From a virus: a stretch of 64,000 bases of DNA. The notes below the pieces were generated by a model that ran no database searches, was not told the origin of the DNA, and saw nothing but the letters and a program-made list of their open reading frames with translations. Shown piece after piece: positions 7,403 through 28,314 of this stretch (its first letter is position 1; every line of letters begins with the position of its first letter). The position numbers were made by a program, and so were the translations under genes. The stretch spans positions 41,627-105,626 of IMG/VR virus record IMGVR_UViG_3300025941_000015. The stretch is one strand, 5' to 3'.

Positions 7403-7444
7403 AGGTTGCTTTCCACAACGTTGTTGTGTACAGTGGTGTCCATG
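7403..7444 (+). promoter_or_regulatory. variant cassette promoter/operator, leaderless
   Basis: aggTTGCtttcca-CAACGTTGTTG-tgTACAGT-ggtgtcc-ATG. Confidence 0.65.
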
Positions 7445-7732
7445 AGCAAATACGACACCATCGAGATCGACGTCTGCAGCGACTGCCTGAACTGGATCGC
7501 CAACGGCACCCTCCCCGACGACGGGGAGCGCGACGAAGTCAACGCCAACAGCTTCGACGCCATCACCACGGCCCCCGGCATCGACGAGGGCTACGACGTC
7601 GTGCCCGGTTCCGGCGACGACGAGGGGCACTTCTCCCACCAGCCGTGCGACGCCTGCCGCCGCCCGTTCGGTGGCCAGCGCTACAAGGCCACCATGATCT
7701 CCCCGATCCCCAACGACAGAGAGGAAGCCTGA
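7442..7732 (+). CDS. Zn-finger-like small protein
   Basis: CSDC...CDAC. Confidence 0.7.
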   Translation: MSKYDTIEIDVCSDCLNWIANGTLPDDGERDEVNANSFDAITTAPGIDEGYDVVPGSGDDEGHFSHQPCDACRRPFGGQRYKATMISPIPNDREEA

Positions 7733-7733
7733 C

Positions 7734-8012
7734 ATGGGCCAGATGAGTGCAGAAGAGATGGCCGCCGCCGTCGGCGAGCACGAGACCACGATGCGCATGG
7801 CGCTGACCTGGCACCTCACGAGCAACCACTTCCCCCCGGTCCACACGATGTTCGTGGACGCAGCGATGGAAGCGATTCAGCTCGCTGCGGACGAGGACTT
7901 CGACTACGTCATCCATCTCCCCAACGACAAGGATCTGACGGTCACCGAGATCGTCGACGAGCTGCACCTGTGGCCGTTTGTCGACAACGCTCTTGGGGCA
8001 GACTTCGACTGA
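7734..8012 (+). CDS. hypothetical protein
   Basis: 92-aa ORF with RBS. Confidence 0.7.
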   Translation: MGQMSAEEMAAAVGEHETTMRMALTWHLTSNHFPPVHTMFVDAAMEAIQLAADEDFDYVIHLPNDKDLTVTEIVDELHLWPFVDNALGADFD

Positions 8013-8295
8013 TGTCAACGGTTGACCGAGTCCTCAGCGTCTTCGCCACGCCCGACTGCCCTGACTGTCAAGGCAAGGGAGTGGTGATGGGGCGGGTCTG
8101 GCAGAACGGTCGGGCTTGGGTCAAGGACAACGACCGGATCTGCAACTGTGTTCCGAGGATCACGGTGAGCCAGCGAAACTAGACCTTGGCGCTCCACCCT
8201 GGTAGGGGTCATTCAGTACGAGAGTGGCATCTCGGAAATGGGAGCGCTACATGCCACCGGAGGAGCGTCGGGTTTCGGCCCGGCGCTCTTTCGCG

Positions 8296-8339
8296 TCCTG
8301 AACCCCTATGTTCAGAAACCGATCCTGAACCCCTGTGTT
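8296..8339 (+). repeat. two 17-bp direct repeats in an intergenic gap
   Basis: tcctgaacccct(a/g)tgtt at 8296-8312 and 8323-8339. Confidence 0.8.
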
Positions 8340-8464
8340 TCGATTCCCGTTTCACACGGGTACAACGTGTGCTGCGGCGGGCCCCTCGCAGCATCCCGAG
8401 CGGCCCGCCGACCAAGCCCCCTCCCCCTCCGCAACGATGTTGCGATCGTGTGACGATGGGCACC

Positions 8465-8506
8465 GAGGTTGGAACAGCGTTGTGGACCGTGTACTCTGGC
8501 CACATG
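8465..8506 (+). promoter_or_regulatory. cassette promoter/operator
   Basis: gaggTTGGAAcagcgttgtggaccgtgTACTCTggccacATG; 17-bp spacer. Confidence 0.85.
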
Positions 8507-8854
8507 ACACGAACCAAGCCAACCCACACACCGTCCTCGATCTACTCCGAGCCCAACCCCATGGAGCGCCTGCTCCGCCGTGCGACGTACGACCTGCGCA
8601 ACGCTCAGCTCACGCTCGACGGCATCGACAAGGACATCCTCCGGCTGCGCAAGCTGGCCCGGCACTACGCCGAGGAGGGCAACCACAGCGCCAAGCGGAG
8701 CGCCAACGACCATGCCGATCGGCGGGTGCTCGAACAGCGCAAGAAGACCGTTGAGCGCGACGCCCTCCAGCAGGAGCTGGAAGTGCTCAAGGTGCTCGTG
8801 GCGAACCACGAGTACTGGGTACCGCAGCCCCGCTTCTGGGAGCAGCAGTCATGA
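8504..8854 (+). CDS. coiled-coil hypothetical protein (leaderless start)
   Basis: Start reassigned to the motif ATG (MTRTKPT...). Confidence 0.75.
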   Translation: MTRTKPTHTPSSIYSEPNPMERLLRRATYDLRNAQLTLDGIDKDILRLRKLARHYAEEGNHSAKRSANDHADRRVLEQRKKTVERDALQQELEVLKVLVANHEYWVPQPRFWEQQS

Positions 8855-10044
8855 CCACCTACACCGCCGTGAGGGTGTCCCTCACCGCCTTCGCCGTCAT
8901 GGACGGCAACGACATCGTCGCTGTGTGCGAGAACATGGCGACCGCCCGCAAGGTCTACGACGAGACGACCGAGATCTACGCCTCGATCCCCCGTCGGTTC
9001 AAGATCATCAAGGTTCCCTACATCAAGGACGAAGCATGACCACCACCTCCGACACCCTCCTCCTGCTCGACAAGGCCACGGCGTACTGGTACGCCTGCGG
9101 CTACAACGACCACCGCGATGGGGACATCGCCCCGTACTGCGATCCGCACGCGTTCGCTGAGCACTGGATCGCTCTGTGCGCCCGGCCCTCTCGCCCCAGC
9201 ATGCAGGACGCTTTCCAGCAGTTCGCATTCGGGGTGAAGTGCACCCGGTGCCACGGCAACGAGGTCATCACCGTCGGTGCCGACCGCCCGGACTACTGGG
9301 GCAACTACGACACCGAGGAGATCCCCTGCCCGGAGTGCCAGGGAGAGGTGGAGTGATGGACACGATCGACTACAACGCCATGCAGGAAGCTGCCATGCAC
9401 ATCATCAGCGCCCAGCGCTCGCTGCCCATCATCCACACCGTCACCATCACCCTCGACGGGGCGACCGGCGGCGCCCTGGTCACCATCGAGGGATTCACCT
9501 CCGATGAGCTGGACGAAACACTCACCCTCGAAAGGACCGTCCGATGACCACCCTCCCCGACCTCGACAACGACACGTTGAAGTACACGTTCAGGAAGCAA
9601 GACCCCACGTCGTACAAGATCGTGTACAACATCTGGCGCTCGATCAACGGCCGCCCCGAGCAGAAGATCGGCACCGTCGTCAAGACCCGCGATGGCGACT
9701 GGAGCCAGTCGGCGCACTGGGTGGCTGAGAGCAGCGACGGCGAACACCGGGGCAGTGGCGACACTCGACAGAGTGCCGTGCGCTCGCTGGAGAACCGGCT
9801 GCAAGGGCCGGAGTACACCGAGCGGAAGCTCCAGGCGTACCGCGACCAGCTTGCCGCCGAGGGCGCCAAGGCGGCCGCAGCCAAGGCGGCGGACGAGGAT
9901 CTGATCGACGCCCTCATGGCCCGCTGGCCAGCGATCGCCGAGCGGTTGCTCCCGCTCCGCGAGAACGCCGGTCGCTTCACCAGCTACGCCGTCACCACTC
10001 AGCAGGTCATCGACATGCTCAACGCTCTGGAGACTTCACGATGA
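8851..10044 (+). CDS. four coupled small genes: 8851-9039, 9036-9356 (DnaJ-type CxxC pairs), 9356-9547, 9544-10044
   Basis: ATGA/TGATG overlaps; CTRCHG...CPECQG in the second gene. Confidence 0.65.
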
Positions 10045-10055
10045 ATCTGACATCC

Positions 10056-10097
10056 GAGGTTGGCAACAGCGTTGCGGACGTGTACTCTGTTCACATG
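10056..10097 (+). promoter_or_regulatory. cassette promoter/operator
   Basis: gaggTTGGCAacagcgttgcggacgtgTACTCTgttcacATG. Confidence 0.85.
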
Positions 10098-10911
10098 ACC
10101 CCAACCACCATCTTCCAGTCCCTCTGGGACGCCCCGCTCTCCGCTCGTGGCTTCATGAGCATCTCGACCCACGACGAGGTCACCTTCAACGGCCTGCAGC
10201 ACGGCGAGCTGTCGATCATCGGCCTGCGCAACGTGGCGGGCCTGGGCACCACGCTCACGATCCACGAGAAGGGCAGCACGCACTGGACGGGCCGGGGCAT
10301 GAAGCCCTCCTACAACGGCGCCTCGATCATCACGATCCTCATCTCGGACGACCTCTGGGCGGGCGGCACCTCGCGTCGCTACATCGAGCTGTCCCGTGCG
10401 ATCTCCGCCTCGACCAGCGTCACCGAGCGCGACTCGCTCAACGCCCTCCACGTCGGGATGCTGCGATGAGCCCCGAGCTGACCAACGCCCTGGTCGCTGC
10501 ACACCGCTCTGCGCAGCTCGCTGCCAGCAACGCTCGTGAAGCCCTGAGCTACGCACAGACGGCCCTCAGGAAGGCCCAGGAGGCCGCTGACGAGGCGGAC
10601 CTCGCCGCTGCGCACATCGCCGGTGCCTTCAAGATCGTTGAGCAGGACGCACGATGAGCGCCCGCCCGAAGCTCGTGCCCGGCCACACGTACCGGTTCAC
10701 GTTCACGCCGACCGAGGCGCTCATCGCTGCGAGGCCGTACAACGTGACCCCCTACACCACCACCGTGACCATCAGCACGACGCCCGGTGGCGTGCACACG
10801 CCCAAGTCGGTCACGATGTGGGCGAACCGCTGGTGCACCCGTGGCCGGTACACGGTCGAGATCGTCGAATTGGTCGAGGAATCTGCCTCCGAGGTTGTAA
10901 CGGCGTTGTGA
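10095..10911 (+). CDS. three coupled hypothetical genes: 10095-10469, 10466-10657, 10654-10911
   Basis: First starts at the motif ATG; ATGA overlaps. Confidence 0.65.
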
Positions 10912-10932
10912 GCCGTGTATCTTGATCACATG
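10891..10932 (+). promoter_or_regulatory. cassette promoter/operator
   Basis: gaggTTGTAAcggcgttgtgagccgtgTATCTTgatcacATG. Confidence 0.85.
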
Positions 10933-11271
10933 ACCGCAACCACCACCACCGCACCCGCCACCTACGCCAAGGCCGCCGCCGTCGCCGAGCAGATCACGCT
11001 CGCCGAACTGGCCGAACTGCTCGCCGCCGACGACAACCCGGACGTCTACCCCGGCAAGGGCAAGCGCAAGCAGATCGCCATGAACGCCCGCCTGCGGGTG
11101 AACACGCTCGACACGGGCGCCACCCGCGGCTGGGTCGGCTACGACCGCTGCACCTTCGGCACCGGCTACACGACCTTCGACGGCGTCACGGTCGGCTACC
11201 GCTACGACCGGCCCGTGTTCCGCTTCGAGCGCCACGGCGTCCGCATCGTGCAGGTCGTGGTCCCGTCATGA
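10930..11271 (+). CDS. hypothetical protein (leaderless)
   Basis: MTATTTT start at motif; followed by coupled 11268-11450. Confidence 0.7.
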   Translation: MTATTTTAPATYAKAAAVAEQITLAELAELLAADDNPDVYPGKGKRKQIAMNARLRVNTLDTGATRGWVGYDRCTFGTGYTTFDGVTVGYRYDRPVFRFERHGVRIVQVVVPS

Positions 11272-11464
11272 GCAGCAAGAGCACGGCCGCCCGTCGGGCA
11301 TCGCAGGCCCGGTCGAACTACGCCGCCATGAAGCGGGCGTCCGACCAGGGCAAGAAGCAACTGGCGTGCCCCCACGAGGTCGTCAACCCCGTTGAGGGGT
11401 TCGAGGGCATGATCCAGTGCGCCGCCTGTGGCGCCTACGGACCTTTCTGAGGAATCACCTCATC

Positions 11465-11505
11465 GACGTTGCAACGACGTTGAAACGGTGTACACTGGCC
11501 ACATG
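11465..11505 (+). promoter_or_regulatory. cassette promoter/operator
   Basis: gacgTTGCAAcgacgttgaaacggtgTACACTggccacATG. Confidence 0.85.
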
Positions 11506-11832
11506 ACAAACACCACCATCACCTCCGCCTGGAACTGCAACGACACGACCAGGACCGCCTCCGTCCTCACGGCCGAGCAGGCCGCTGCTGCGGGCATCCT
11601 GCTCGCCGACGACGACGAGTTCGTCATGAACCTCCGCTCCTGGGACGTCGACGCCCCGTTCTTCATCATCGGCCGCTTCACCGGCCGCACGCGTCGCATG
11701 TGGCAGGAGACGTGCCGCACGATCGAGACCTTCGATGTCGAGACCGTCGCCATCGAGGACGACCGCGACGGGACGTTCGCCATCTGGGGCGTCAGCGGCG
11801 CACGGCGCAAGGGCACCTGGGCCTGCCGCTGA
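11503..11832 (+). CDS. hypothetical protein (leaderless)
   Basis: MTNTTIT start at motif. Confidence 0.7.
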   Translation: MTNTTITSAWNCNDTTRTASVLTAEQAAAAGILLADDDEFVMNLRSWDVDAPFFIIGRFTGRTRRMWQETCRTIETFDVETVAIEDDRDGTFAIWGVSGARRKGTWACR

Positions 11833-11835
11833 TCT

Positions 11836-11906
11836 GCGCAGGTCGCTCCGGGCGGGGCGACCGTGCGCGTGCCGGGGAGACGGGTAGACGGGACCGTCTC
11901 CCCGGC
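11836..11906 (+). terminator. tandem GC-rich hairpins
   Basis: gccggggagacgg (11871-11883) / ccgtctccccggc (11894-11906) plus an upstream ggtcgc...gcgacc stem. Confidence 0.55.
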
Positions 11907-11935
11907 GACAACATCGTACGAAGAATCCTCCCTCT

Positions 11936-11976
11936 GACGTTGGAACAGCGTTGAAGACGTGTACACTGATCACATG
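11936..11976 (+). promoter_or_regulatory. cassette promoter/operator
   Basis: gacgTTGGAAcagcgttgaagacgtgTACACTgatcacATG. Confidence 0.85.
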
Positions 11977-12467
11977 ACCGCAACCACACTCTCCACCACA
12001 TTCGGCCCCGTCAAGACGGGCTCGACCGCCGCCTTCATCGCTGTTGTCAAGGCCGAGCGCCTGTGCCGCATCGGCACGACGTCCGTCGAGGGCACCAAGG
12101 TGCTCTGGCGTGCCGAGACCAGCCAAGCGCTGGAGACGCGCCTGCGCCGGGCTGGCCTGGGCCGCTCGTCCGAGTCCGGCCTGTGGTTCATGCGTGGCCG
12201 CTCCTCGTTCGCCGAGGGCGCCATCGTCCCCGGCGAGCTGATCGCCACGGTCGAGATCGTCGAGGTGGCCAAGTGAGCCGCCGCATCTTCCCCACGTTCG
12301 AGGCGTTCGTCCAGTACCACCCGATGTACCTCCAGAACCGGTACGGCGGCAAGTGCTTCGAGTGCGGGCAGTTCGTCCCACAGTTCAAGGGCAGCGTGGT
12401 CAAGGTGCACGGGAAGCACCGCATCGCCCACCTCCCGGTCGAGGGCCATTGCGAGGGTGCGAAGTGA
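11974..12467 (+). CDS. two hypothetical genes: 11974-12276 and 12273-12467 (CFEC)
   Basis: Motif start; GTGA overlap. Confidence 0.65.
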
Positions 12468-12479
12468 TTCTTCCACACC

Positions 12480-12520
12480 GAGGTTGCAATGCCGTTGAAG
12501 ACGTGTACACTGACCACATG
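12480..12520 (+). promoter_or_regulatory. cassette promoter/operator
   Basis: gaggTTGCAAtgccgttgaagacgtgTACACTgaccacATG. Confidence 0.85.
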
Positions 12521-13282
12521 ACAAACACCACCACCAACACCGCCCCGAACGCCCACCAAGCCGAAGTCGACGGCCGCATCGCCGAGGCGAGCGTCGCCTA
12601 CGCCAAGGCCGCCCAGAACGCCGCCTGGTGGGAGAAGCACACCACGTCCGCCTACGACGGCGAAGCCAAGCTCGCCGAGGCCGTCGCCAAGCGCGACGAC
12701 ACCCTGGCCGCCCTCTCCGCGGTCGAGGCCGAGTTCGAGGGCTGGAGCCGCTTCTTCCTCGTGCAGGCCAGCAACGGCCACATCCACAAGAGCCTGTGGT
12801 GCTCGACGTGCTTCCCCACGACGCAGTACGCCTGGCTCCCGGCCCTGTCCGGCCTGACCGAGGCCGAGGCCGTCGCCGAGTACGGCGGCATCCTCTGCTC
12901 GATCTGCTTCCCCTCCGCCCCGGTCGAGTGGACGACGGGCACGAACAAGAAGGACGCCGAGCGCAAGGCCGCTGAGGCCGCCTTGAAGGCGATCGCCAAG
13001 ACGCCCGAGGGCAAGGCCGTCATCCGCAAGCGCGACCTCGTGCGCAGCCACCAGTACGCGATCGACTCGTTCGACCGCACGATCGCACGGCCCGCCGAGA
13101 CGATCGCATTCGCCGCCAGCCGGGGCATCACGGTCACGCTCGACGACGAGCGCGTCGCCAAGGAAGTGCAGTGGGCCAACGAGGCCCAGGCCAAGCGCGA
13201 GCCCGTCGTCAAGAAGCTGGCCAAGGCCCAGGCGCAGCTCGACGTCGCCGAGGCGGCGCTGAACGCCGCTCTGGGGATCTGA
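12518..13282 (+). CDS. Zn-binding phage protein with coiled-coil C-terminus
   Basis: GHIH...CSTC...LCSICFPSAPVEW. Confidence 0.75.
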   Translation: MTNTTTNTAPNAHQAEVDGRIAEASVAYAKAAQNAAWWEKHTTSAYDGEAKLAEAVAKRDDTLAALSAVEAEFEGWSRFFLVQASNGHIHKSLWCSTCFPTTQYAWLPALSGLTEAEAVAEYGGILCSICFPSAPVEWTTGTNKKDAERKAAEAALKAIAKTPEGKAVIRKRDLVRSHQYAIDSFDRTIARPAETIAFAASRGITVTLDDERVAKEVQWANEAQAKREPVVKKLAKAQAQLDVAEAALNAALGI

Positions 13283-13290
13283 TCAGGAAT

Positions 13291-13340
13291 CACCTCCACG
13301 ACGTTGCAACGGCGTTGTGGAGGTGTACACTGATCACATG
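13291..13340 (+). promoter_or_regulatory. cassette promoter within a 13-bp inverted repeat
   Basis: cacctccacgacg-TTGCAAcgg-cgttgtggaggtg-TACACTgatcacATG. Confidence 0.85.
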
Positions 13341-13562
13341 ACTGCAACCACCACCTCCGTTTCCACCCTCGCCGCAGGCGCCGTCATGGGCGCCGCGGCC
13401 CGCTGCTTCGCCGTTGGCGACACGGGCCCCAAGAAGGGCCACCGCATCATCGCTGAGATGCGCGGCGAGCGCGTCGGAGCCGAGGCCGAATGGTTCGCCC
13501 TGTGCGGCGTGCTCGCGCTCGTCCGCTTCGTCAAGGTCTCGGGCATCACTGAGATCTTCTGA
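13338..13562 (+). CDS. small hypothetical protein (leaderless)
   Basis: MTATTTS start at motif. Confidence 0.65.
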   Translation: MTATTTSVSTLAAGAVMGAAARCFAVGDTGPKKGHRIIAEMRGERVGAEAEWFALCGVLALVRFVKVSGITEIF

Positions 13563-13567
13563 GGAAT

Positions 13568-13617
13568 CACCGTCGCAACGTTGCAACAGCGTTGCGACGG
13601 TGTACACTGTTCACATG
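13568..13617 (+). promoter_or_regulatory. cassette promoter within a perfect 13-bp inverted repeat
   Basis: caccgtcgcaacg-TTGCAAcag-cgttgcgacggtg-TACACTgttcacATG. Confidence 0.85.
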
Positions 13618-14698
13618 ACACAAACCACCACCATCGCATCCGCCTCCGCCTACGACACCCCGCACTGGCTGCGCAACGCCGGGCTCGACGTCGAGGGCAC
13701 GCACGAGGCATTCGTCGTGCTGTTCGACGACCTCGACCAGGCGCTCGCCTGCGTCAAGCTGGCCAGCGCCCAGGCGTTCGCCGCCTACGTGCGCCAGGGC
13801 GGCAACGCCCGCAACAAGCGTGCGTTCAGCGCCCAGTTCGCAGCCGTGACCAAGGCCCTCCGGGCCGCAGCCTGACCAACCACCACCAAGGAGAGAACCC
13901 CCACCACCATGAGCGCAGCTCGATACACCGTCATCGGAGCGTGGCACGACCACGACTCCACGTACTTCCCCTTCATCGTCCAGGCCGCCGACCTCTTCGA
14001 CAACCGCTCGAAGCAGCTCTACAGCAACGGCGCCATGCGCGTCGTCTTCGACGGCAAGCCCGCCGTGCGCGGCAAGGGCGGCACAACGCCCTTCAAGGGC
14101 GAGACCGCCTGGGCGCACGCTGAGAGCCTCGCACGCTCCCTGCAGGTCTCTGAGCGCTACGTGAGGACCGTCTGATGGCGCGCCTCCCGCTCGCCGAGCG
14201 CCTCGCCATGGTGCTCAACAGCCTGCCGAGCTACGCCGAGGTCGACGTCGTGTGCGTGCCCTACGAGGGTGCGCGCACCAACGAGTTCCGGCTGATGGCC
14301 CGAGACTTCCCCACGTACGACATCGAGCTGTCCCGCCGGTTCACGAACCTCACGACCGGCACCGAGTGGTTCGTCAAAGCTGAATCGCTCGCAGCGTTCG
14401 GCGTAGTCTCGGTGGAGATCCACCTCGACGACGTCAAGAACTGGAGCATCCAATGAGCAAAGGTCACGGCTTCCCCAGCGAGATGATCCACACGCACGCC
14501 TTCGAGCTGCAGGCACACCGCAAGAGCACCGCAGGACGGGCCCTGGTGCCGCTCACGCTGTTGAAGAGCAACGACCGGGCGGAAGTCGAGGCGGAGCACG
14601 CACGGCGCTCTGAGGTCAATTCACAGCTCCGCAACCCCAGCCGCCTCATCATCGTTGAGAACAAGCGGTGGCGAGATGATGGAGTTTCTGGCCCCTGA
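13615..14698 (+). CDS. four hypothetical genes: 13615-13875, 13909-14175, 14175-14456, 14453-14698
   Basis: Motif start, AAGGAG RBS, coupled stops and starts. Confidence 0.65.
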
Positions 14699-14738
14699 GG
14701 TTGGAACAGCGTTGTGCGTCGTGTATCTTGATCACATG
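14697..14738 (+). promoter_or_regulatory. cassette promoter/operator
   Basis: gaggTTGGAAcagcgttgtgcgtcgtgTATCTTgatcacATG. Confidence 0.85.
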
Positions 14739-15181
14739 ACCGCAACCACCACCTTCAAGATCACCGTCCCCGTCGCCCACGTCTGGGCCTCCGGCGCCAT
14801 GCGCGGCACGGGCGTCCGCATCGTCGAGATCGTCGAGGAGGCCACCATCCTGGGCGGCTGCCGGGCGATCGACGCCGCCGTCGCCCAGTGCAAGCACCCC
14901 CTCGCCGACGCCTCGCCCGAGATCGAGCCCAACCCCGCCCTCATGGGCTGGGCGCTGGGAGCGTGAGCGCCGTGACGACCCGTCGCCTCTGCCCCGGCCT
15001 CTACGAGGTCTCCACGCCCCAGGGCGTGTTCACGATCGACCGCATCACGAACGAGTACGGCGGCTCGACGTACACCGAGTGGTTCATCACGTGGCCAGGC
15101 GAGCGGAGCCCCGACGCCATCGGCATCACGCTGCGAGACGCCAAGATGATTGTGGCGGCAGAGGTTGGAACAGCGTTGTGA
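14736..15181 (+). CDS. two hypothetical genes: 14736-14966 and 14963-15181
   Basis: Motif start; GTGA overlap. Confidence 0.6.
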
Positions 15182-15201
15182 GCGTGTACACTGACCACAT
15201 G
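15161..15201 (+). promoter_or_regulatory. cassette promoter/operator
   Basis: gaggTTGGAAcagcgttgtgagcgtgTACACTgaccacATG. Confidence 0.85.
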
Positions 15202-15677
15202 ACAACGACCATGAGCTGCGACACCTGCTACGACACGAAGACCATCGACCAGGGCGGGCGCGAGATCCCCTGCCCGGACTGTGTCTTCCGGTATCACCCG
15301 TCGAGCGTGACGATCGAGACCAACCCGGACTACGACCCCAAGTCGACCTCGATGTTCAACGTCCGGTACATCATCCGCGACCGCTCGATGGGCAACTTCA
15401 TCTACGGGAAGGCCCGCAACATGGACGACGCCATCCGCATCCAGCGCAAGCGCCAGGGCGTGATCAAGGCGGCGCTCACCCGCCGGGCGAACAAGGCTGC
15501 GAGGGCCGCCAAGTGAGCACGCTCATCCACTACGGCAAGCCGCGCACGCGGTCGTTCCCGACCGACGTCGACATCTGGCTCCCCGAGGGCGCCATCGTCC
15601 TCCACACCGAGCGCCATCGCGCTGCCACGGTCATCACGTACCTCGTGCCGAGCGGGCGCACGTCGAGGCCCATCTGA
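15199..15677 (+). CDS. two genes: 15199-15516 (CDTC...CPDC) and 15513-15677
   Basis: Motif start; GTGA overlap. Confidence 0.6.
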
Positions 15678-15690
15678 GGAATCTCACAAC

Positions 15691-15732
15691 GGCGTTGCAA
15701 GAGCGTTGTGACCGTGTACACTGGTCACCATG
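15691..15732 (+). promoter_or_regulatory. cassette promoter/operator
   Basis: ggcgTTGCAAgagcgttgtgaccgtgTACACTggtcaccATG, with an extra CAACGGCGTTG overlapping upstream. Confidence 0.8.
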
Positions 15733-15852
15733 ACAGGCAACCAAGACCACGACCAAGACCGCCGCTTCCCGGCCATGACCGCCACCCGCTACGGCAGCAA
15801 CCACGACTGGTGCTACCGGGGCGACAACACCAAGTACAAGAACAAGAAGTGA
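15730..15852 (+). CDS. 40-aa leaderless peptide
   Basis: MTGNQDHDQDRRF...KYKNKK*, starts at the motif ATG; not in the ORF track. Confidence 0.5.
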   Translation: MTGNQDHDQDRRFPAMTATRYGSNHDWCYRGDNTKYKNKK

Positions 15853-15919
15853 GCCCCAGCGGCCACTGTCACACCCCCCAGTCACACTGAATCCCCTACC
15901 CAACGAAACCAGGAGAACC

Positions 15920-16303
15920 ATGACCACCACCATCAGCAACCCCGAGGTCCGCTCGACCGACCTCCTCGTGCACGAGCTGCTCGTGCAGCTCCGGGCCGCC
16001 GAGCGCGCCGAGGAGCGCGCCGACGCCATCAAGGCCGAGCTGGTCGAGCGCCTGGGCGACGGCGGCAAGGTTGAGACCCACGAGGCGAAGATCGCCATCG
16101 TGGCCAACAAGACCCAGGTCGTCGACATCGACGCCCTGCAGACCGTCGCCTCGAAGGGCTTCTTCTACAAGGTCACCAAGCGGGTCGTCGACAACACCGC
16201 CTTCAAGGCGTTCCTCGCCCTGGAGCAGGTGCCCCAGGACGTGCTCGACATCGTGACCACGAAGGTCAGCAAGCCCGCCGTCCGAGTCACGATCAAGAAG
16301 TGA
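15920..16303 (+). CDS. hypothetical protein (possibly Gam/Gp157-like)
   Basis: AGGAG RBS; helical N-terminus then beta-rich basic C-terminus. Confidence 0.65.
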   Translation: MTTTISNPEVRSTDLLVHELLVQLRAAERAEERADAIKAELVERLGDGGKVETHEAKIAIVANKTQVVDIDALQTVASKGFFYKVTKRVVDNTAFKAFLALEQVPQDVLDIVTTKVSKPAVRVTIKK

Positions 16304-16549
16304 TCCTCGACGACGGCCACCAGCACCACGTCGAGATCGAGCGTGAGAACCTCCCGCCCCGCTCGTGGTACCCACGCTGCGACTGCGGCTGGGAGGGGTT
16401 CGGCCAGGCGTCTCGACGTGACGCTGAGGACGACGGCGACGGCCACGTCCTCAGCTTCACCCGCTGATCGCCCGTCGACGTGAGGCCGGTCAGGTAGGTG
16501 GCGCCACTGACGACCGGCCACAGCGCCCGGTAAAGCCGGATCGGGTTGG

Positions 16550-16580
16550 GAGCGCCCTCTGCACACCGCAGGGGGCGCTC
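16550..16580 (+). terminator. hairpin
   Basis: gagcgccctctgc...gcagggggcgctc. Confidence 0.5.
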
Positions 16581-16597
16581 TCGCGTACGCTGGAGCC

Positions 16598-17365
16598 ATG
16601 GAGTCTCGATCGAGGAGCCGGGCGCCGTCGGGCGCCGACCCGCACCTCGCTGCGCGCCTGGGGCGCCAGCAGGAGAACCGTGATCGCATCATCGGTGCGG
16701 GCGCCGGTCGCGAGCGCGTGCTGGGCAATCGAGCTGCGCTCTTCGAGGCCGGTGAGATCGACTTCGACCCGCACACGCTGTCGATGGAGTCGCTGGGCAT
16801 CCGCAACGTCGAGCGCGACGTGCTGCACAACCGTGTCGAGAACAAGGTGCCGTACGGGCCGCACGATGCGTCGGTGTTCCGCAAGGCTGGTGAGGTGCGA
16901 GAGGTGCCCCTGACGGGCCCTGACGCCGTCACAACGATGCAGAGCCACGTGAGCCCCGCACGTGTCGCTGAGATCGTCAGAGACCCGCACAGCGGCTCTG
17001 ATCCACGCTTCCGAGGCACGCCTGCAGCCGAGATGCCACTGGTCGTCGAGCACATGACGCGCCACCCGGAGACGGGCGCCTGGGGCCGCACGAACGTGGT
17101 CTACAACGGCAACCACCGCATCGTCGCGGCCCTGCAGCAGGGGCAGACCTCGATCCCCGCTCGTGTCATCACGAGGGAGCAGCGCGAGTCTGCGTCCGAC
17201 GTGTTCCGGCGAGACAGGACGCGCTTCAAGGACTCACGAGAGCAGCGCCTCGATGTCGGCAGCACCCGCCTGGTGATGGGCGATCCCACGATCAAGAGGG
17301 GCATGGGCGCTGGCATCTGGGACGAGGTCGCCAAGCAGGACATCGAGAACTACGGGAATACCTAG
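16598..17365 (+). CDS. ParB/Srx-like domain protein
   Basis: PLVVEH...VVYNGNHRIVAALQQGQTSIPARVI; TACGCT -10 six nt upstream. Confidence 0.7.
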   Translation: MESRSRSRAPSGADPHLAARLGRQQENRDRIIGAGAGRERVLGNRAALFEAGEIDFDPHTLSMESLGIRNVERDVLHNRVENKVPYGPHDASVFRKAGEVREVPLTGPDAVTTMQSHVSPARVAEIVRDPHSGSDPRFRGTPAAEMPLVVEHMTRHPETGAWGRTNVVYNGNHRIVAALQQGQTSIPARVITREQRESASDVFRRDRTRFKDSREQRLDVGSTRLVMGDPTIKRGMGAGIWDEVAKQDIENYGNT

Positions 17366-17370
17366 CCCGG

Positions 17371-17411
17371 CAGGTTGCAACTGCGTTGTGGTCGTGTACA
17401 CTGGCCACATG
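17371..17411 (+). promoter_or_regulatory. cassette promoter/operator
   Basis: caggTTGCAActgcgttgtggtcgtgTACACTggccacATG. Confidence 0.85.
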
Positions 17412-18570
17412 ACCTACCACACCACCACCCCCGCCAACTACACCCCCGTCCTTGGCTCCGTTGTCCCCGGACCCTGGAACTCGAAGTACGCCGTCTCGGA
17501 GCACACGCTCGCCGTGAACCTCGCCAGCACCGCTGCGATCGAGGACGACGACCACACGGTCGTCCGGGCGATCGACGACGCCGTCGCCGTGTTCGAGGAC
17601 GACGACCTCATCAACGACGGCTCGATCCGAGGCTTCTGGGCCTGGGTCTGGAGCGGGCTCGACCGCGGCACGCAGCGTGACGTCGCCAAGCGCGCCGAGG
17701 CGCTCCTCGAAGCGCACCGCGCTGGCGGGTACGGCAGCAAGGCCGACCTCTTCGAGATGTTCGACGGCCAGCGGTGAGCGCGCTCACTGGCAAGGCGCTC
17801 GTCGAGCACCGCCGGGACCGCCTCGCCGACCTCGTCGAGATGCGGGCCCGGCAGGCCGCCGAGCTGGCCGAGACCGATGAGGCGATCGCCGAGTGCATCG
17901 CCTCGATCCTCGACGCAGCCTCCGAGGAGCTGTCATGAACCAGAGTCACGAGGATTGGCTCAACGCCGCCGGAGACCCGGCCGCCACGCACGCCCTGATC
18001 AACCAGGCGGGCTCGTACGAGAACGGCCCGCACCAGCTCCCCCACACCACGCTGATCGCCGGGCTGATGTACGGGGCAGGCGCCCTCTACGTGCCGAAGG
18101 GCCGTGCGCAGTTGTGGTACGCCCTCGTCGTCCCGCTGTTCATCGCCGGGTGCCACTTCCTCCGCGACGGGGGCCGCACCCCGGCCTCTGAGTCATCGTG
18201 GTGGTGGTACGGCGAGTTCCACCAGACCCCGCTCTCGCTGTTCTTCTTCGCCCTGTCGATCGCCAGCGTGTTCCTGCTGAACGCCGAGGTGAACCGGCAC
18301 AAGCGTGCCCGGTACTACGCCGCGGCCGCTGCCGCTCAGCTCGACGCAGACACCGCCTGGATCGCTCAGGGCGGGCGCACGGTCGTCGAGGCGACGGTTC
18401 GCTCTCACAACGACGTTGAGCCCTCACAGGGCCACACAGCGCCTCTCCCGACGTTGTGGCTGCCGAGCAGCCCCGAGCGCCGGGTGCGCCGTGGCGGCAC
18501 GACGCTCAACGGCACACCGATCAAGGATCGCCGATCGGTCAACCCCGAGACACTCTTCGACGAGTACTGA
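17409..18570 (+). CDS. three genes: 17409-17777, 17774-17938, 17935-18570 (membrane protein, about 3 TM)
   Basis: Motif start, coupled overlaps, hydrophobic segments. Confidence 0.65.
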
Positions 18571-18577
18571 CAACCCA

Positions 18578-18608
18578 TGGTTGCAACAGCGTTGTGACCG
18601 TGTACACT
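18578..18608 (+). promoter_or_regulatory. cassette promoter, leadered variant
   Basis: ggTTGCAAcagcgttgtgaccgtgTACACT, then GGAG RBS and ATG 18643. Confidence 0.8.
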
Positions 18609-18642
18609 GCACACCGACCCCTACCCACTGGAGAACGCCACC

Positions 18643-19374
18643 ATGGCACGAATCAACACCGTCAAGAGCGCGCAGCAGCGCTACCGCACCGTCCCCGTCC
18701 TCGACGAGGCGGGCCAGCCCAAGAGCACCCCGGTGCTCCGCAAGGACGGCACGCCCAAGACCACCAAGACCGGCCGGGCCATCACCCGCCGGGTGACGGT
18801 CGCCGACAAGACCCAGCCGCTGCCCAACCACACGTGCGGCAAGTGCGGTGTGGAGATCGAGGTCGGCCACCCGTACCGCTGGGTGCAGATCAAGAGCGGC
18901 CCGTACGGCGGACGCACGATGTACCGCTGCATGAGCTGCCCCTCGTGGCGCCAGTCCGAGCTGACCAGCTCGAAGATGGCGGGCATCTACGCCGCCCAGG
19001 AGCACCTGAGCGACATCATCGACAGCCTGGAGACGGTCGACGATCTCACCGACGCAGCGCAGACGTTCGCCGATGCCGTCCGCGAGGTCGGCGAGGAGTA
19101 CCGCGAGTCGCAGTCCAACATGGTCGACGGCTTCGGCCACGACACCTCGATGAGCGACGAGCTGGGCGAGAAGGCCGACATGCTCGACGACTGGGCGAAC
19201 GACATCGAGTACCTCGACTTCGAGGACTTCGACGAGGAGCCGCCCGAGGAGGACGACTTCGAGGATGAGGACGCCTTCGAGACCGCCAAGGAGGACTGGA
19301 ACGCGAACGCTGACGCCCACTGGGAAGACCAGCGCGCCGTCCTCATCGACGCATCGGACGAGTGCCCGCTCTGA
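18643..19374 (+). CDS. Zn-finger plus highly acidic coiled-coil protein
   Basis: CGKC...CMSC; D/E-rich C-terminal half. Confidence 0.75.
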   Translation: MARINTVKSAQQRYRTVPVLDEAGQPKSTPVLRKDGTPKTTKTGRAITRRVTVADKTQPLPNHTCGKCGVEIEVGHPYRWVQIKSGPYGGRTMYRCMSCPSWRQSELTSSKMAGIYAAQEHLSDIIDSLETVDDLTDAAQTFADAVREVGEEYRESQSNMVDGFGHDTSMSDELGEKADMLDDWANDIEYLDFEDFDEEPPEEDDFEDEDAFETAKEDWNANADAHWEDQRAVLIDASDECPL

Positions 19375-19993
19375 TGCGCAAGCGGGCCGTGCTCGAACAC
19401 ATCGGCAAGTACGTCGAGATCGAGCACGGCCCGTTCCGGCCCCGCAGCCTGGCCATCGTGCTGGGCTACGGGTACCGGCAGCGCCACGGTCGCGGCTCGC
19501 CGCTCGAAGAAGACTGGACGTCGCGCTCAGGCGGCAGCCAGGTCGCCGTGGCCATGCGCCACGAGGACGGCTCGTGGACCCCCGAGGCCGTCCATCTGAT
19601 TTCAATCCACCGATGCTCCGAGGAGGAGTCATGAACCGAGATGCCCCCATTCTGCGACTGGTCACACCGGCCGTCGATCACGCTGTTGACGTCGTCATGC
19701 ACAACGCTGACCCCGAGCGCTTCCACCGCCAGCACGGCGTGCCGTGCGAGCTGTGCCCCGAGCCCGAGACCGAGCTGCAGAAGGAGATCGCTCGCAAGAT
19801 CGATGAGCTGATGGGTGACACCGAGATGGCCCCGTGGCAACGCAAGCTGGCCAGCGAGGTGCTCGCCGCACAGATGGCGCCTGACAGCATCGAGATGTCC
19901 GACGCACTGCAGACCTACCTCGACGACCGCAGCCTGATGGCTGACCCCGGCGAGATCGAGGACGACGAAGATGACGAAGAGATTGACGAGTGA
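19374..19993 (+). CDS. two hypothetical genes: 19374-19634 and 19631-19993
   Basis: Coupled starts; GAGGAGG RBS. Confidence 0.6.
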
Positions 19994-20032
19994 GGTTGCA
20001 ACGGCGTTGCGACCGTGTACACTGATCACATG
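19992..20032 (+). promoter_or_regulatory. cassette promoter/operator
   Basis: gaggTTGCAAcggcgttgcgaccgtgTACACTgatcacATG. Confidence 0.85.
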
Positions 20033-20743
20033 ACCAACGCCACCGCAACCCCCCGCCAGTTCGACTTCATCGCCAAGCTCGTTGACGAGCGCAAGGCCAC
20101 CTGCGGCGTCACCGACGTCGCCGCCTTCATGCAGGTGCTCGCCGACCAGCGCCTCACCAAGACCGGCGCCAGCGCCCTCATCGACAACCTGCTCTCGCAG
20201 AAGCCGGACGCCAAGGTCGCCCCGGCCCCGGTCGCAGGCGCCACCCCGGCCCAGCCCGCGGTGCGCCCCAACCGCTTCGACGCCAAGTGCGACCGCTGCG
20301 GCAAGAACGTGCCCGCGGGCACCGGCACGCTCAACGGTGGCCCTGGCCGCTGGATCGTCGCCCACGTCGAGGGTGGCTGCCCGGTCGACCTGCAGGTCGA
20401 GCTGAACCAGCTCCTCGCCGAGATCCCCAAGGGCTACTACGCCATCCCGTTCATCGGCCTCGACGCCGCCCGCAACGACCTCACCTTCCTCGCCGTCGGC
20501 ACGAAGGACAACGGCGACCGCACGCTGCGCCACGTGGTCGGTGGCCACGGCGAGCTGGACGGCATGAGCATCGAGTGGTGCCGCCGGGCCGTCGCCGGGC
20601 TCAACGCCACGAGCCTCGAAGTGGCAGCCGCCACCTACGGCCAGGAGTACTCCCACTGCGGACGCTGCGGCCGGTCGCTGACCGACGACGCCAGCCGTGC
20701 CCGCGGCATCGGCCCGGAGTGCGCCACCAAGCTCTGGAGCTGA
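20030..20743 (+). CDS. DUF6011-domain protein
   Basis: C-terminal CGRCGRSLTDDASRARGIGPECA; N-terminal ATPRQ..FI. Confidence 0.8.
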   Translation: MTNATATPRQFDFIAKLVDERKATCGVTDVAAFMQVLADQRLTKTGASALIDNLLSQKPDAKVAPAPVAGATPAQPAVRPNRFDAKCDRCGKNVPAGTGTLNGGPGRWIVAHVEGGCPVDLQVELNQLLAEIPKGYYAIPFIGLDAARNDLTFLAVGTKDNGDRTLRHVVGGHGELDGMSIEWCRRAVAGLNATSLEVAAATYGQEYSHCGRCGRSLTDDASRARGIGPECATKLWS

Positions 20744-20751
20744 CCACGGCA

Positions 20752-20786
20752 ACGGGGTTGCGATTGGCGCAACCCCGTGTACACTG
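20752..20786 (+). promoter_or_regulatory. leadered promoter variant inside a hairpin
   Basis: acggggttgcg-attgg-cgcaaccccgt followed by gTACACT. Confidence 0.65.
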
Positions 20787-20833
20787 ACCACACCCTTCCC
20801 CTACCAATGACAACCACCAAGGAGACCACCAAC

Positions 20834-21544
20834 ATGAACACCGACACCACGATCCTCGTCTCGAAGATCGAGAAGCTCTGGCGCAAGGCCAACAGCGCGG
20901 GCTCGACCCCGGCCGAGCGTGACACGTTCGAGGCCAAGGCCCTGAGCCTCATGGAAGAGAACCGCATCACGATGGCGATGCTGGAGATCGACGACCAGGA
21001 CATCCTGGGCGACTACGAGTACGGCGACATCTCGGGCCGCTACGCCCGGCCCGTGCTGGCCATCTTGACCGCCGTGGCCCACGCCTACGACTGCAAGGTC
21101 TGGTGGCGCGACTTCGGCTCGACGAAGCAGGTCTGGCTGTTCGGCTTCAAGAGCGACTGCGAGCGCACCAAGCTGCTCGCCCGCATGCTCATCGCCGATG
21201 CGCAGGCGCAAGCCACGTCCGAGTCGGGCTACTCGCCCGGCGAGACGTTCTCGTTGCGCCACAGCTTCCTCCACGGCTTCTCGTCGGCGATCGCCATGCG
21301 TCTCCGCGAGGCCGCCGTCATGGCCAACAAGGCGTTCGACCAGGAGGCCGCCAAGGGCTCCGCCCTGGTGCTCGTGGCCCGCCGTGAGCAGATGCACGTG
21401 GAGTACTCGAAGAAGCGCCTGCGCAGCGCCAGCCCGAGCTACGCCCGTCGGGGCGGCGCCCGTGGCCGCGGCGTCGAGGCGGGCAACAACGCCCGTCTCT
21501 CGACGCAGGGGCAGGTCGTCAACCGCAAGGCGCTCGCATCATGA
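20834..21544 (+). CDS. DUF2786-domain protein
   Basis: KIEKLWRKANS...PAERDTFEAKALSLM; AAGGAG RBS. Confidence 0.8.
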   Translation: MNTDTTILVSKIEKLWRKANSAGSTPAERDTFEAKALSLMEENRITMAMLEIDDQDILGDYEYGDISGRYARPVLAILTAVAHAYDCKVWWRDFGSTKQVWLFGFKSDCERTKLLARMLIADAQAQATSESGYSPGETFSLRHSFLHGFSSAIAMRLREAAVMANKAFDQEAAKGSALVLVARREQMHVEYSKKRLRSASPSYARRGGARGRGVEAGNNARLSTQGQVVNRKALAS

Positions 21545-22047
21545 GCAGCGACCCCGACAAGGACACGGTGTACGCCGCTGAGGCGCTCGCCTTCCTGGGC
21601 ACGCCCCTCGCAGACCGCCAGCAGGAGTCGAGCATCGTGGAGGGCTACCACACGATGCTCGACGCCCCCTGGTGGAAGTGGGGCACCATCGAGATCCGCC
21701 AGGCACGCGCCGACATGGTGCGCGCAGGCGGGTACGCCAGCCTGTTCGGCATCAGCACGAGCGCTGGCCGCGTGGAGCGCTACACGATCAGCCACGAGCT
21801 GGCTCACATGGTGGTCAAGCGCCAGGGCATCTGTGATCGACACGGGCCCCAGTTCCGCACGGCGCACCTGTACACCGTCGGTGCCGGGTTCGGCCGCCAG
21901 TACGCAGACCTCCTCGCTCAGGCGTACGAGGACTACAACCTCCCGGTGTTCCTCACGCCGGGTGGGCTGGGCATCCCCCCGGTGCCCACGATCAACATCG
22001 ATGCTCTCAGCATCGCAGCAGCCCCTCGGGGCGGATGGAGAAGGTAA
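21541..22047 (+). CDS. HExxH metallopeptidase (TIGR04338/Rv0185-like)
   Basis: VYAAE...ISHELAH...HGPQF; adjacent to DUF2786 as in actinobacterial genomes. Confidence 0.75.
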   Translation: MSSDPDKDTVYAAEALAFLGTPLADRQQESSIVEGYHTMLDAPWWKWGTIEIRQARADMVRAGGYASLFGISTSAGRVERYTISHELAHMVVKRQGICDRHGPQFRTAHLYTVGAGFGRQYADLLAQAYEDYNLPVFLTPGGLGIPPVPTINIDALSIAAAPRGGWRR

Positions 22048-22238
22048 TGATGGTTCACACAACGGACATCGCAGGCATCCGCGACATCGCTCAGCACTTC
22101 GGTGTGAAGCCCAACGTCGTCAGCAACTGGTCAGCTCGCTACAGCGACTTCCCCGCGCCGATCGCAGAGGTGGCTGCTGGCCGCCTGTGGGATCTGCAGG
22201 AGGTCGTCGAGTGGTACAACGATCGCTGGGCATCGTGA
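22047..22238 (+). CDS. small HTH (AlpA/excisionase-like) DNA-binding protein
   Basis: GIRDIAQHFGVKPNVVSNW...DFPAP...GRLWDLQEV. Confidence 0.8.
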   Translation: MMVHTTDIAGIRDIAQHFGVKPNVVSNWSARYSDFPAPIAEVAAGRLWDLQEVVEWYNDRWAS

Positions 22239-22940
22239 TCCAGAGTCTGGAGCGCGTCGCACACGACGAGGCGTACCACGTCGCGAGGCGCTCGAAGCAC
22301 GGCGACTTGAAGCAGATCACGCGCAGCACGGGTGACCTCGACGAGGCACGAGCGTGGTGCCACGACGCTGACACCGTCGTGGTGCTCGTGCGCTCCGAGA
22401 CGTACGTGGTGCGCTGATGGGGCTCCAGTCACACTCCAGGCGTGCACGGCTGACCAAGGTCATCATCGCCCCGCCGGTCGCACCCGGCAAGCGTCGGTGC
22501 CAGGGTGAGATCTACGAGCGCGCTCGTCACCATCACGTGGCGATCGGCTACGACGCCGGGGGCCACCGCGTCTGGCAGAAGCAGTGGATCGACGAGCACC
22601 TTCGCCCGTGTCTCAACCCGTGCTCGACGTTCGTCACTGAGGTCAACTACTGCGCGCATCACATGCCCACCGACTGGGTGGTGCTCGCCAACGCTCGTGT
22701 CGAGCTGTGGAACCAGCTCTCGATCGAGGCATGGGAGCACGTGCTCGACACGTACCCTGGCATCGACCCGTGACGCGCAAGCTCGTCACGTCACACGTCG
22801 GTGATGCGCAGCGCGCCATCATCGGCGAGTGGTGGACCGATGAGATCATCACCAACCAGTACGTCCCCGACGACAAGGTCTACATCATCGACACCGACGC
22901 ACTCGATGTGATCCTCGCACCGGAGTGGATATGGGAGTGA
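22235..22940 (+). CDS. three small hypothetical genes: 22235-22417, 22417-22773, 22770-22940
   Basis: Coupled overlaps. Confidence 0.55.
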
Positions 22941-22980
22941 GGGTGGAACAGCGTTGTGCGTCGTGTACACTGACCACATG
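22939..22980 (+). promoter_or_regulatory. cassette promoter/operator
   Basis: gaggGTGGAAcagcgttgtgcgtcgtgTACACTgaccacATG. Confidence 0.8.
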
Positions 22981-23202
22981 CCTACCACCATCACCTACAC
23001 CACCCCCTTCGGAGAAGCCGCCTCGTTCACGATCGAGGTCGACCCGGACACCGGCCACGCCACGATCACGGCCGACCTCCGCGACGGCAATGCAGGCGTC
23101 GCTCACTTCGTCGACCTCATCGCGGCGACCGACGTCGCGCTGCGCATCGTGCGCCAGGGCATCGAGGCCAACGCCTCGATCGCACCGTGGATCGAGGTGT
23201 GA
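22978..23202 (+). CDS. small hypothetical protein (leaderless)
   Basis: MPTTITYTT at motif; followed by hairpin gcccgccgcc...ggcggcgggc. Confidence 0.65.
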   Translation: MPTTITYTTPFGEAASFTIEVDPDTGHATITADLRDGNAGVAHFVDLIAATDVALRIVRQGIEANASIAPWIEV

Positions 23203-23344
23203 CTCGAACGCCCGCCGCCTCCGGGCGGCGGGCTCCACGGGGCGGGCCAGCGGCCACGCCGCTACCGCACCCGGTGGGGACGGGATCCGCCATGCACTTC
23301 GTGCGATCGAGCCTCGCGCAACGGCGCTGAGGAATCTCGCATGC

Positions 23345-23385
23345 AGGTTGGAACGGCGTTGTGCACCGTGTACGCTGTTCACATG
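23345..23385 (+). promoter_or_regulatory. cassette promoter/operator
   Basis: caggTTGGAAcggcgttgtgcaccgtgTACGCTgttcacATG. Confidence 0.85.
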
Positions 23386-26997: not shown

Positions 26998-27354
26998 TCA
27001 CAGGCCCATGCGATGGGCCACGTGCACGTACGGGTAGACATCGACGTTGTGCCACGCCTGTCGACGCCCCGCCACCAGCTCGGCATCGAGGCCGAACCGA
27101 TCGACCGCATCGAGCACGAGCACTGGAGCATCGGTGCGATGCACGTGAGCGAGGCGCTCCATGCTGCCCGACGCCCACTTGAGGCCCCGGTGCGTGATCC
27201 ACCGATTCATGCGCCCCGCCGCATCGATGATGTCGTCGTACTTGCCCAGCTCGAAGTCGCCCTCGATGGTGGTGACATTCACGTGGTATCGGCCGTCGCC
27301 GTTCGGGCCGCAGTCATGCAGCAGGGTGAGCGTTGCGTTGTGGTTTGTCATCAC
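26998..27354 (-). CDS. hypothetical protein on the opposite strand
   Basis: 118-aa ORF with phage-like codon usage on minus. Confidence 0.6.
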   Translation of the reverse strand: MMTNHNATLTLLHDCGPNGDGRYHVNVTTIEGDFELGKYDDIIDAAGRMNRWITHRGLKWASGSMERLAHVHRTDAPVLVLDAVDRFGLDAELVAGRRQAWHNVDVYPYVHVAHRMGL

Positions 27355-27429
27355 CTACTACAAGGAGCGCTCGACCTCGAAGTGTCAAAGCTCTTGGGAG
27401 AAACTTCAGATTGCTGCTACCCTCCCGCA

Positions 27430-27830
27430 ACAGCGATGCCCCGTAAGGTGCGCACCGTTCCAAGGGTCGGCAAACGTGGGTTCAACTCCCATGACCTCGG
27501 TACGGGTCATCGTGAGTGGAGGCATCCACCGGGTCACCAGGCTCGTCGAGGTGGGTAGGCAGAAGGCTTAGCGGCCCGACACCTGGCACCTCGACGACCT
27601 GTCCGGTTGGTATGCCGAATCGGCGGCCCGCTCCAAGCTCGAATCCATGGAGTCAAGAGAGAGCACAGCATGGCCACTCCCACTGCAGTGCCGTTGTGCA
27701 ACACCAGTGCAGTCGAGGAGCTGTGCGTGTACGTGCTACCGGCTGTGAGCCATGTGCCGTATGCCTGGGCTCAGTCCGGCTCGCCCCCACGTCAGAGGCC
27801 CTTTCCGTCGTACGCAGCGCCCCGACGGCC
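27430..27830 (+). ncRNA. candidate large structured non-coding RNA
   Basis: Many nested stems, a T-loop-like GTGGG-TTCAACT-CCCAT, and a TGcTACCCT promoter just upstream; no convincing ORF. Confidence 0.45.
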
Positions 27831-27845
27831 CGCTACAGTGCCCCC

Positions 27846-28052: not shown

Positions 28053-28091
28053 GTACGGGCCTCCCCGTGCATAGGTGTTGCAGCTACCATG

Positions 28092-28213: not shown

Positions 28214-28314
28214 TGATCCAGCCGCCTGCACGGTAGCCTACCCCCCCACCGCTTAACCGATCTGACGCCAGCCGGGCGGGCCAGGTCACCCTCAGTCGTA
28301 AAGGCCCTTCAACC

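Follow-up and report, generated by a model that had tools for sequence, protein, structure and literature searches.

The final 64 kb of a 105,626-bp virus record in IMG/VR (IMGVR_UViG_3300025941_000015), hereafter the window, contains between positions 7403 and 23385 an array of closely similar cassettes (coordinates refer to the window unless given as genome positions). A stop-promoter-start unit of about 75 bp precedes 16-18 groups of unrelated small genes. We think it likely that these units are leaderless early promoters recognized by the host sigma factor, and that they also act as recombination joints. The proposed order of a cassette is: in many cases, the stop of the gene before; a GGAATC box, followed about 12 nt later by a -35 box of the form TTG-S-AA; the block AAC-R-GCGTTG; 5-6 free bases; GTG and a TANNNT -10 box; 6 nt; an ATG whose A is the predicted RNA +1; and 3-6 threonine-rich codons composed of C and A. 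Soon after infection, the SigA/HrdB holoenzyme of the host would initiate a leaderless mRNA at each cassette, and the 5'-terminal AUG would load ribosomes, helped by the unstructured CA-rich tract, with the later genes of each unit relying on ordinary Shine-Dalgarno (SD)-led or overlapping starts. A protein bound at the invariant block between the boxes may switch the whole set on or off together.

The element is abundant in the array and confined to it. The window contains 15 exact matches to a gapped pattern, where 100 dinucleotide shuffles yielded 0.00, and a looser scan of the whole genome returned copies on the + strand only, between 8469 and 23376. With a weight matrix of the right half (-10 box to ATGAC), the array copies scored 32-39 bits and the best site elsewhere 16.7; run genome-wide, pattern and matrix scans place full copies in the array only. 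The total is 16 leaderless copies, including a degenerate one (7403) and one with an extra base (15730), plus two leadered copies (18580 and 20756), all on the + strand within 7403-23385 and none elsewhere in the 105.6-kb genome. An earlier, first-pass annotation of the window had placed the element before 16 ATGs, from 7442 to 23383, and each of these coordinates holds; the leadered versions that it reported are likewise present, at about 18580 and 20756. It had further described each copy as heading one to five unrelated short genes: the cassette-headed proteins indeed have no significant pairwise similarity, but unit size is 1-6 genes in the gene calls of this analysis. No Pfam family was found above threshold for 34 of the 35 array proteins tested.

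The anatomy of the element is that of a promoter fused to a start codon. Little or no variation is seen in the blocks GTTG-x-AAC-x-GCGTTG, GTGTAC-x-CTG and CAC-ATG-AC, and between them lie one block of 5-6 nt and one of 2 nt, both free to vary; about 35 positions, spacer and first codons included, are invariant across 16 copies. In the information profile only the T, A and last T of the -10 hexamer are fixed, its middle occurring in four versions. The TTG of the -35 box is also fixed (the copy at 22942 has GTG as its -35 box), with a spacer of 16-17 nt to the -10 box, and the A of the ATG lies 7 nt after the -10 box, or 8 nt in one copy (15730). This geometry is the one expected of actinobacterial SigA leaderless promoters, with TANNNT, a TTG 16-18 nt upstream and a start 6-7 nt after the -10 box. 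Streptomyces coelicolor pairs TANNNT with a -35 box of TTG type; leaderless transcripts make up 21% of its mRNAs, with AUG as the preferred start (PMC4895711). The element thus reads as a SigA-type leaderless promoter carrying the footprint of the primary actinobacterial sigma factor. The same reading had been advanced in the first-pass annotation and stands at sequence level: TTG and T-A-N-N-N-T are invariant, there is no SD, ATG is the only start, and the host appears to be an actinobacterium.

Two further features belong to the upstream part. About two thirds of the copies have a GGAATC box 10-13 nt ahead of the -35 box; the GAATC previously reported ahead of many copies was recovered, as such or as a near variant, 10-13 nt before the -35 TTG in 11 of 16 scanned copies. 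Cassettes often incorporate the stop with which the upstream gene ends: it is part of c-TGA-GGAATC, stands immediately ahead of the -35 box, or falls within the spacer.

The start codons of cassettes differ from those of other genes in ways expected of leaderless translation. An SD run of at least 4 bases is found upstream of one of 15 cassette starts, compared with 47% of 148 other starts, and ATG is used in 16/16 cases, compared with 64% among all called + strand starts. Threonine accounts for 56% of codons 2-8 versus 11% elsewhere (Fisher p = 9e-24), and the A+C content of these codons is 0.86 versus 0.59, with G at 0.06. Leaderless translation reportedly increases when CA repeats follow the start (PMC9031893). 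The N-terminal residues after cassette starts vary among T, N, H, P and Q. Since three database proteins (P0001-P0003) begin with VYADHM or MYADHM, which is the translated -10 region, their automatic gene calls start five codons too early; this bears out the earlier suspicion that many open reading frame (ORF) starts in the array were misplaced. Distant homologues of the product of 12518-13282 (P0004-P0057) frequently have threonine-rich N-termini of varying length (MTTTT, MSTTT, MNTTT) ahead of a conserved core, and such starts may be widespread in phages with these homologues.

Along the array, the degenerate cassette comes first (7403-7444; -35 box TTGCTT, CAAC-N3-GTTG, -10 box TACAGT, ATG at 7442). 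It is followed by leaderless cassettes at 8468-8506 (ATG 8504, heading five genes), 10059-10097 (ATG 10095, heading three), 10894-10932 (ATG 10930), 11468-11505 (ATG 11503), 11939-11976 (ATG 11974), 12483-12520 (ATG 12518), 13303-13340 (ATG 13338), 13580-13617 (ATG 13615), 14700-14738 (ATG 14736), 15164-15201 (ATG 15199), 17374-17411 (ATG 17409), 19995-20032 (ATG 20030), 22942-22980 (ATG 22978) and 23347-23385 (ATG 23383), the last heading an SNF2-type helicase gene that runs to 24912. The cassette at 15694-15732 (ATG 15730) has 7 rather than 6 nt between -10 box and ATG. The leadered copy at 18580-18645 combines the usual -35 box, conserved block and -10 box with a 31-nt leader bearing GGAG (ATG 18643). 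In the leadered variant at 20756-20836 a 9-bp hairpin takes the place of the conserved spacer block; its -10 region is at 20777-20785 and is followed by ATG-Thr-Thr-Thr at 20807 and by AAGGAG and an ATG at 20834. These two copies have a CCCCTACC leader in common and each has its own GGAG or AAGGAG. A leadered sub-family can be recognized, in which the leader ACCACC-AAGGAG-ACCACC stands before unrelated genes (20790-20836 in the window, 1828-1890 in the related contig L024). A looser leadered promoter-like site at 32600-32683 (TTGCGC, CGTTG directly before TAGAGT, AAGGAG) follows a terminator-like hairpin and lies upstream of gene 32681-33100, which has no Pfam or PHROG match.

Comparison with relatives indicates how cassettes behave over time. 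A motif scan identified 15 contigs from soil or rhizosphere metagenomes, all short assemblies, that are 72-99% identical to the array. Whole units are lost: the 11974 unit (to 12478) is missing from L022 and L057, with flanks that overlap by 98 nt within the repeat in L057, and the 13338 unit is missing from L022, with a 71-nt overlap within the repeat. Units also move, the 10930 unit being placed in L043 between the homologues of 14453 and 15199; in the same contig, the cassette at the 13303 position is fused in frame to the 13909 homologue, ahead of that gene's SD-bearing leader. Replacements at cassettes begin at +5 to +13. At cassette 14700, L041 has another first gene from +5 onwards, and the right-hand end of that replacement (14972) is also where L009 breaks; L031 retains the first gene of the window yet has the -10 region of L041, so that the three patterns of L041, L031 and the window describe a three-way mosaic inside the cassette. 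Finally, L035 joins the 20756 copy to 20013, as would a tandem duplication or a circle. An ORF for an HNH-type endonuclease, absent from the window, is inserted in L020 (587-1066) between gene 20030 and the 20756 promoter.

Gene 15199 provides the most explicit case. Neither L009 nor L041 has a cassette before it; translation there would begin at the ATG that is second in the window (15211), behind an SD and in ATGA overlap with the upstream gene. The window has 44 nt in place of 5 nt in these two contigs, and its cassette supplies a new tail and an in-spacer stop to the upstream protein, and four added residues (M-T-T-T) to the downstream one. In L043, which also lacks this cassette, the ORF starts by GTGA overlap after a different gene. 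With three start contexts for one gene, the cassette behaves as a discrete stop-promoter-start module. The use of a coupled SD-led start wherever the 44-nt cassette is missing in L009 and L041 also upholds the earlier claim that the start codon is part of the same piece. A gain in the window lineage is the simpler scenario, because the cassette is absent from two of three lineages, including the most divergent.

Other readings of the conserved stretch were tried and rejected. As a palindromic operator, GTGTACAC is contradicted by the variant -10 boxes, which break the palindrome and keep T-A...T. As coding sequence, the stretch has its variable sites at second codon positions, and its spacer length shifts the frame. 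A hairpin around the -35 box as a general feature holds for 3-4 copies only: there are 16-bp hairpins at the cassettes 13303 and 13580, a long hairpin in the L043 copy at the 13303 position, where pairing is kept with different arm sequences, and a separate 9-bp stem at 20756. A stable stem-loop in every copy was not found (mean z-score -1.0 over 43 copies). A distinct GC-rich, terminator-like hairpin (11868-11905) lies between gene 11503-11832 and the next cassette, and L057 has a different hairpin in the same place.

The block AAC-R-GCGTT occurs 17 times in the genome, compared with 0.6 expected; 13 occurrences are in the array and two are left halves, at 28776-28790 (an intergenic -35-like box followed by AAC-A-GCGTTG) and 29057-29071, both on the + strand and without the -10/start half. 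Conversely, right halves occur with another left half at 20756 and in L025. Since left halves are found alone and right halves with a different partner, the halves are separable modules, a pattern that fits a protein site overlapping the -35 box and spacer. AAC-R-GCGTTG is most likely the putative site of a phage or host protein, which could act either as a repressor or as an activator. The candidate regulator genes 26998-27354 (- strand), 28843-29103 and 32681-33100 have no Pfam or PHROG match, and the operator keeps its putative status because no regulator was found. Of the promoter-operator-start unit proposed in the first-pass annotation, the start codon is clearly included; for the operator, the evidence consists of conservation and the two left-half copies.

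The cassettes do serve as joints, and the events between one repeat and another have the look of homologous exchange. Copies could act as exchange sites because 50-75 bp recur 18 times in one orientation and a RecA-like recombinase is encoded; profiles for single-strand annealing proteins and exonuclease (RecT, ERF, YqaJ) gave no match. Breakpoints fall within 5 nt of a cassette interval in 10 of 32 unique cases, against 9.6% of the region covered (p = 6e-4). Single-gene indels and replacements are also seen at ordinary boundaries (10478/10652, 16297/16550, 18261/18449, 19618), the HNH endonuclease insertion of L020 being one such difference. Gene-content differences are thus bounded by the motif, as in the T4-type elements discussed below, with no enrichment over ordinary gene boundaries, and a preference of the joints for cassettes is not demonstrable. 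The proposal that genes are gained and lost at the element stands for whole-unit loss, a moved unit and replacements, and not for such an enrichment; an adaptive shuffling role is unproven.

Several observations weigh against the reading of the array as host-sigma leaderless promoters and joints. By a hand count, some 18 of roughly 47 gene junctions are cassettes, a proportion close to their share of breakpoints, and per-gene identity shifts also at boundaries without a cassette. The relatives are short metagenome assemblies, and in L035 no more than 13 bases are shared at the junction, which lies where the contig ends and may have arisen during assembly. An Escherichia coli-style promoter scan finds nothing at the cassettes, because each hexamer has only 4/6 consensus positions. 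About ten invariant positions are not explained by sigma contacts, so that transcription could need a phage factor, and no regulator came to light, the HTH_3 search being negative and almost all array proteins lacking Pfam domains.

In an alternative that we regard as unlikely, the cassettes would be middle-class promoters needing a phage-encoded activator or sigma-appropriating protein that reads the AAC-R-GCGTTG block and the GTG, much as the MotA box is read in T4. The host enzyme alone would then be insufficient and the cassettes would not be the earliest promoters. The ten or so invariant positions beyond sigma contacts would be accounted for, as would the solitary left halves at two further sites, and among the phage proteins is a WhiB-like one, from a family that binds SigA region 4 (PMC13013590). 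Against such an activator, the -35 TTG is intact, invariant and properly spaced, unlike that of MotA-type promoters; right halves with a different left half still look promoter-like; and the search for a candidate activator gave no result.

Two explanations dispense with promoter function altogether. In one, the element would act at the RNA level in a read-through mRNA, by recruiting ribosomes or a protein or by directing processing, in the manner of the SAS/ESAS motifs of mycobacteriophages. Its tight linkage to start codons, single orientation, location in a non-structural region and ATG preference recall SAS, and a few copies lie in long hairpins, of which that at 13303 differs in its arms from its L043 counterpart with pairing kept. 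Yet the long hairpins are limited to 3-4 loci, with the mean z-score over 43 copies given above; there is no SD core; conservation follows TTG and T-A-N-N-N-T, with the 16/17-nt length variation typical of promoters; and the leadered copies stand 31-50 nt from the start, each with its own SD. We therefore hold this explanation to be very improbable. Even less credit can be given to a selfish repeat with no regulatory role, or to a functional N-terminal peptide tag (M-T-x-T-T). It is true that the cassette is present or absent at one and the same gene junction and that identity extends into the first 4-6 codons of unrelated proteins. However, invariant and free positions alternate both in paralogous copies and in the matching copies of relatives, which points to selection for spaced recognition elements; gene 15199 occurs in relatives with or without the M-T-T-T extension; and the residues T, N, H, P and Q fit a C+A constraint on nucleotides rather than on a peptide. 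Leaderless promoters recognized by the host sigma factor thus remain our preferred reading.

No close relatives among GenBank phages were found by megablast, a search of IMG/VR based on the helicase returned none, and a motif scan of IMG/VR gave one chance match, in a low-GC phage. A motif scan of 185,579 prokaryote genomes produced only single chance matches, none from a named actinobacterium among the matches listed; with only chance matches in prokaryote genomes, the cassette element is not one of hosts or prophages. No comparable repeated word was found in the sampled parts of the phages BRock (1-50 kb) and Alone3 (50-100 kb), and the early genes of BRock are SD-led with ordinary promoters. 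High-GC phages with a homologue of 12518 (L098, L106, L107 and L108) have a repeated word of their own, CCGACCGAGGAGAC, in 4-10 copies per locus and with an SD-like GAGGAG core, and the IMG/VR loci L093, L111 and L116 have other repeated words.

Among known systems, the closest and the right comparison is with the PeSLs of T4-type phages. These composite motifs begin at a stop codon, continue with a sigma-70 promoter and a stem-loop, and finish at an SD and start codon; they cluster ahead of ORFans, and indels, replacements and mini-circles arise through them (Arbiol et al. 2010, PMC2839356; Comeau et al. 2014, PMC4122927). In both systems, a repeated cassette extends from an upstream stop through a host-type early promoter to a downstream start, in a block of small ORFan genes, with indels, replacements and reshuffling among related phages at its copies, and a homologous-recombination enzyme is encoded (UvsX in T4-type phages, the RecA-like protein here). 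The geometry of the 16-18 copies in a 16-kb block is that of host-sigma early promoters before the ORFans of a variable region, as for PeSLs. The phage lineage differs, the present one being a BRock-like myovirus with an actinobacterial host. Moreover, 14 of 15 copies have no SD and the ATG is the predicted first RNA base; the first 4-6 codons, rich in C+A and threonine, are part of the repeat; a stem-loop is present in a few copies only; and there is an invariant spacer block. For PeSLs, promoter and terminator activity as well as mini-circles were shown experimentally; for the present cassette, promoter activity is predicted from sequence.

Other resemblances are partial. The SAS/ESAS motifs of Cluster K mycobacteriophages (Pope et al. 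2011, PMC3203893) are, like the cassettes, in one orientation, in the non-structural half, at the starts of unrelated genes and biased to ATG; SAS is a 13-bp motif with an AGGAG core 3-7 bp before the start and a role thought to be translational, whereas the cassettes have promoter geometry and no such SD-like core. Leaderless SigA/HrdB promoters of Streptomyces and Mycobacterium (PMC4895711, PMC3898074) share TANNNT, a TTG-type -35 box, a start at +1, AUG and the lack of an SD; they are individually diverse, in contrast to 16 copies with about 35 invariant positions in common. The analogy with integrons drawn in the first-pass annotation fails on every defining feature: Phage_integrase and Resolvase profiles had no match in the genome, there are no attC-type sites, and each unit has its own promoter instead of a single common Pc. 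The only likeness is that short unrelated genes, with a repeat at the boundary of each, are arrayed in one orientation.

To judge by its genes, the virus is an uncultured BRock-like myovirus of a high-GC actinobacterium. The genome has a G+C content of 65%, and 163 of its 168 called genes are on the + strand. Pfam matches place genes for tail sheath, baseplate and lysozyme within genome 0-25 kb, and DnaB, SNF2 helicase and PolA genes at 26-38 kb; the RecA-like gene (genome 38.4-39.5 kb) and the WhiB-like gene (39.9-40.2 kb) come next, followed by the block of small genes. A second SNF2 helicase gene starts at 23383 of the window, and the terminase and portal are at 35917 and 54064. Terminases of the Streptomyces phages BRock, Alone3, LuckySocke and GiJojo (112-116 kb) share 45-48% identity with that of the present virus, whose gene order is similar to that of Alone3. 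From the WhiB gene and the BRock-like terminase, the host is judged to be an actinobacterium, with soil or rhizosphere as its probable habitat; WhiB proteins are described as confined to Actinobacteria and their phages (PMC13013590). A Sigma70_r2 profile gave no match, and no phage sigma factor was found; a search for a T7-type RNA polymerase also had no match, a weak negative, since its positive control matched nothing anywhere. Rfam and tRNA scans of the window gave no match.

Some features outside the array are recorded here. About 1 kb of lower-GC non-coding DNA (27355-28315), with several CAAC-N3-GTTG palindromes, a repeated GTTGCACAAG word and no tRNA or Rfam match, adjoins an HNH endonuclease gene on the - strand (28315-28752), a strand that has few genes. 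The 10-mer TCCTGAACCC occurs seven times, always on the + strand (2360, 3485, 5515, 6983, 8296, 8323 and 49136), mostly within genes upstream of the array. A protein of 2023 aa (42762-48833) is encoded with internal repeats at the DNA level (46400-48600), where AAGCGCATCATG and GGCAAGAAGATC occur five times each.

A bolder proposal, which we put forward as a tentative possibility, is that the cassette is a self-contained, portable stop-promoter-start module that can be inserted between coupled genes, where it would supply a stop to the upstream one and a leaderless ATG with threonine codons to the downstream one, and is read by a dedicated regulator binding AAC-R-GCGTTG. If true, actinophages would have a mobile regulatory element able to rewire operons with neither transposase nor integrase. 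The array would carry over to a high-GC actinophage the PeSL idea, known from T4-type phages of Gram-negative hosts, that an early promoter is also a joint at which accessory genes recombine, and in a more compact form: stop, promoter, first base of the mRNA, start and translation-friendly codons are held in a single repeat. In practical terms, automatic gene calls in such regions start five codons early, and the cassette is a candidate strong and compact expression part for Streptomyces-like hosts. As gene 15199 exists in leaderless, SD-led coupled and stop-start overlap versions, the costs and benefits of leaderless expression would be directly testable on a single gene.

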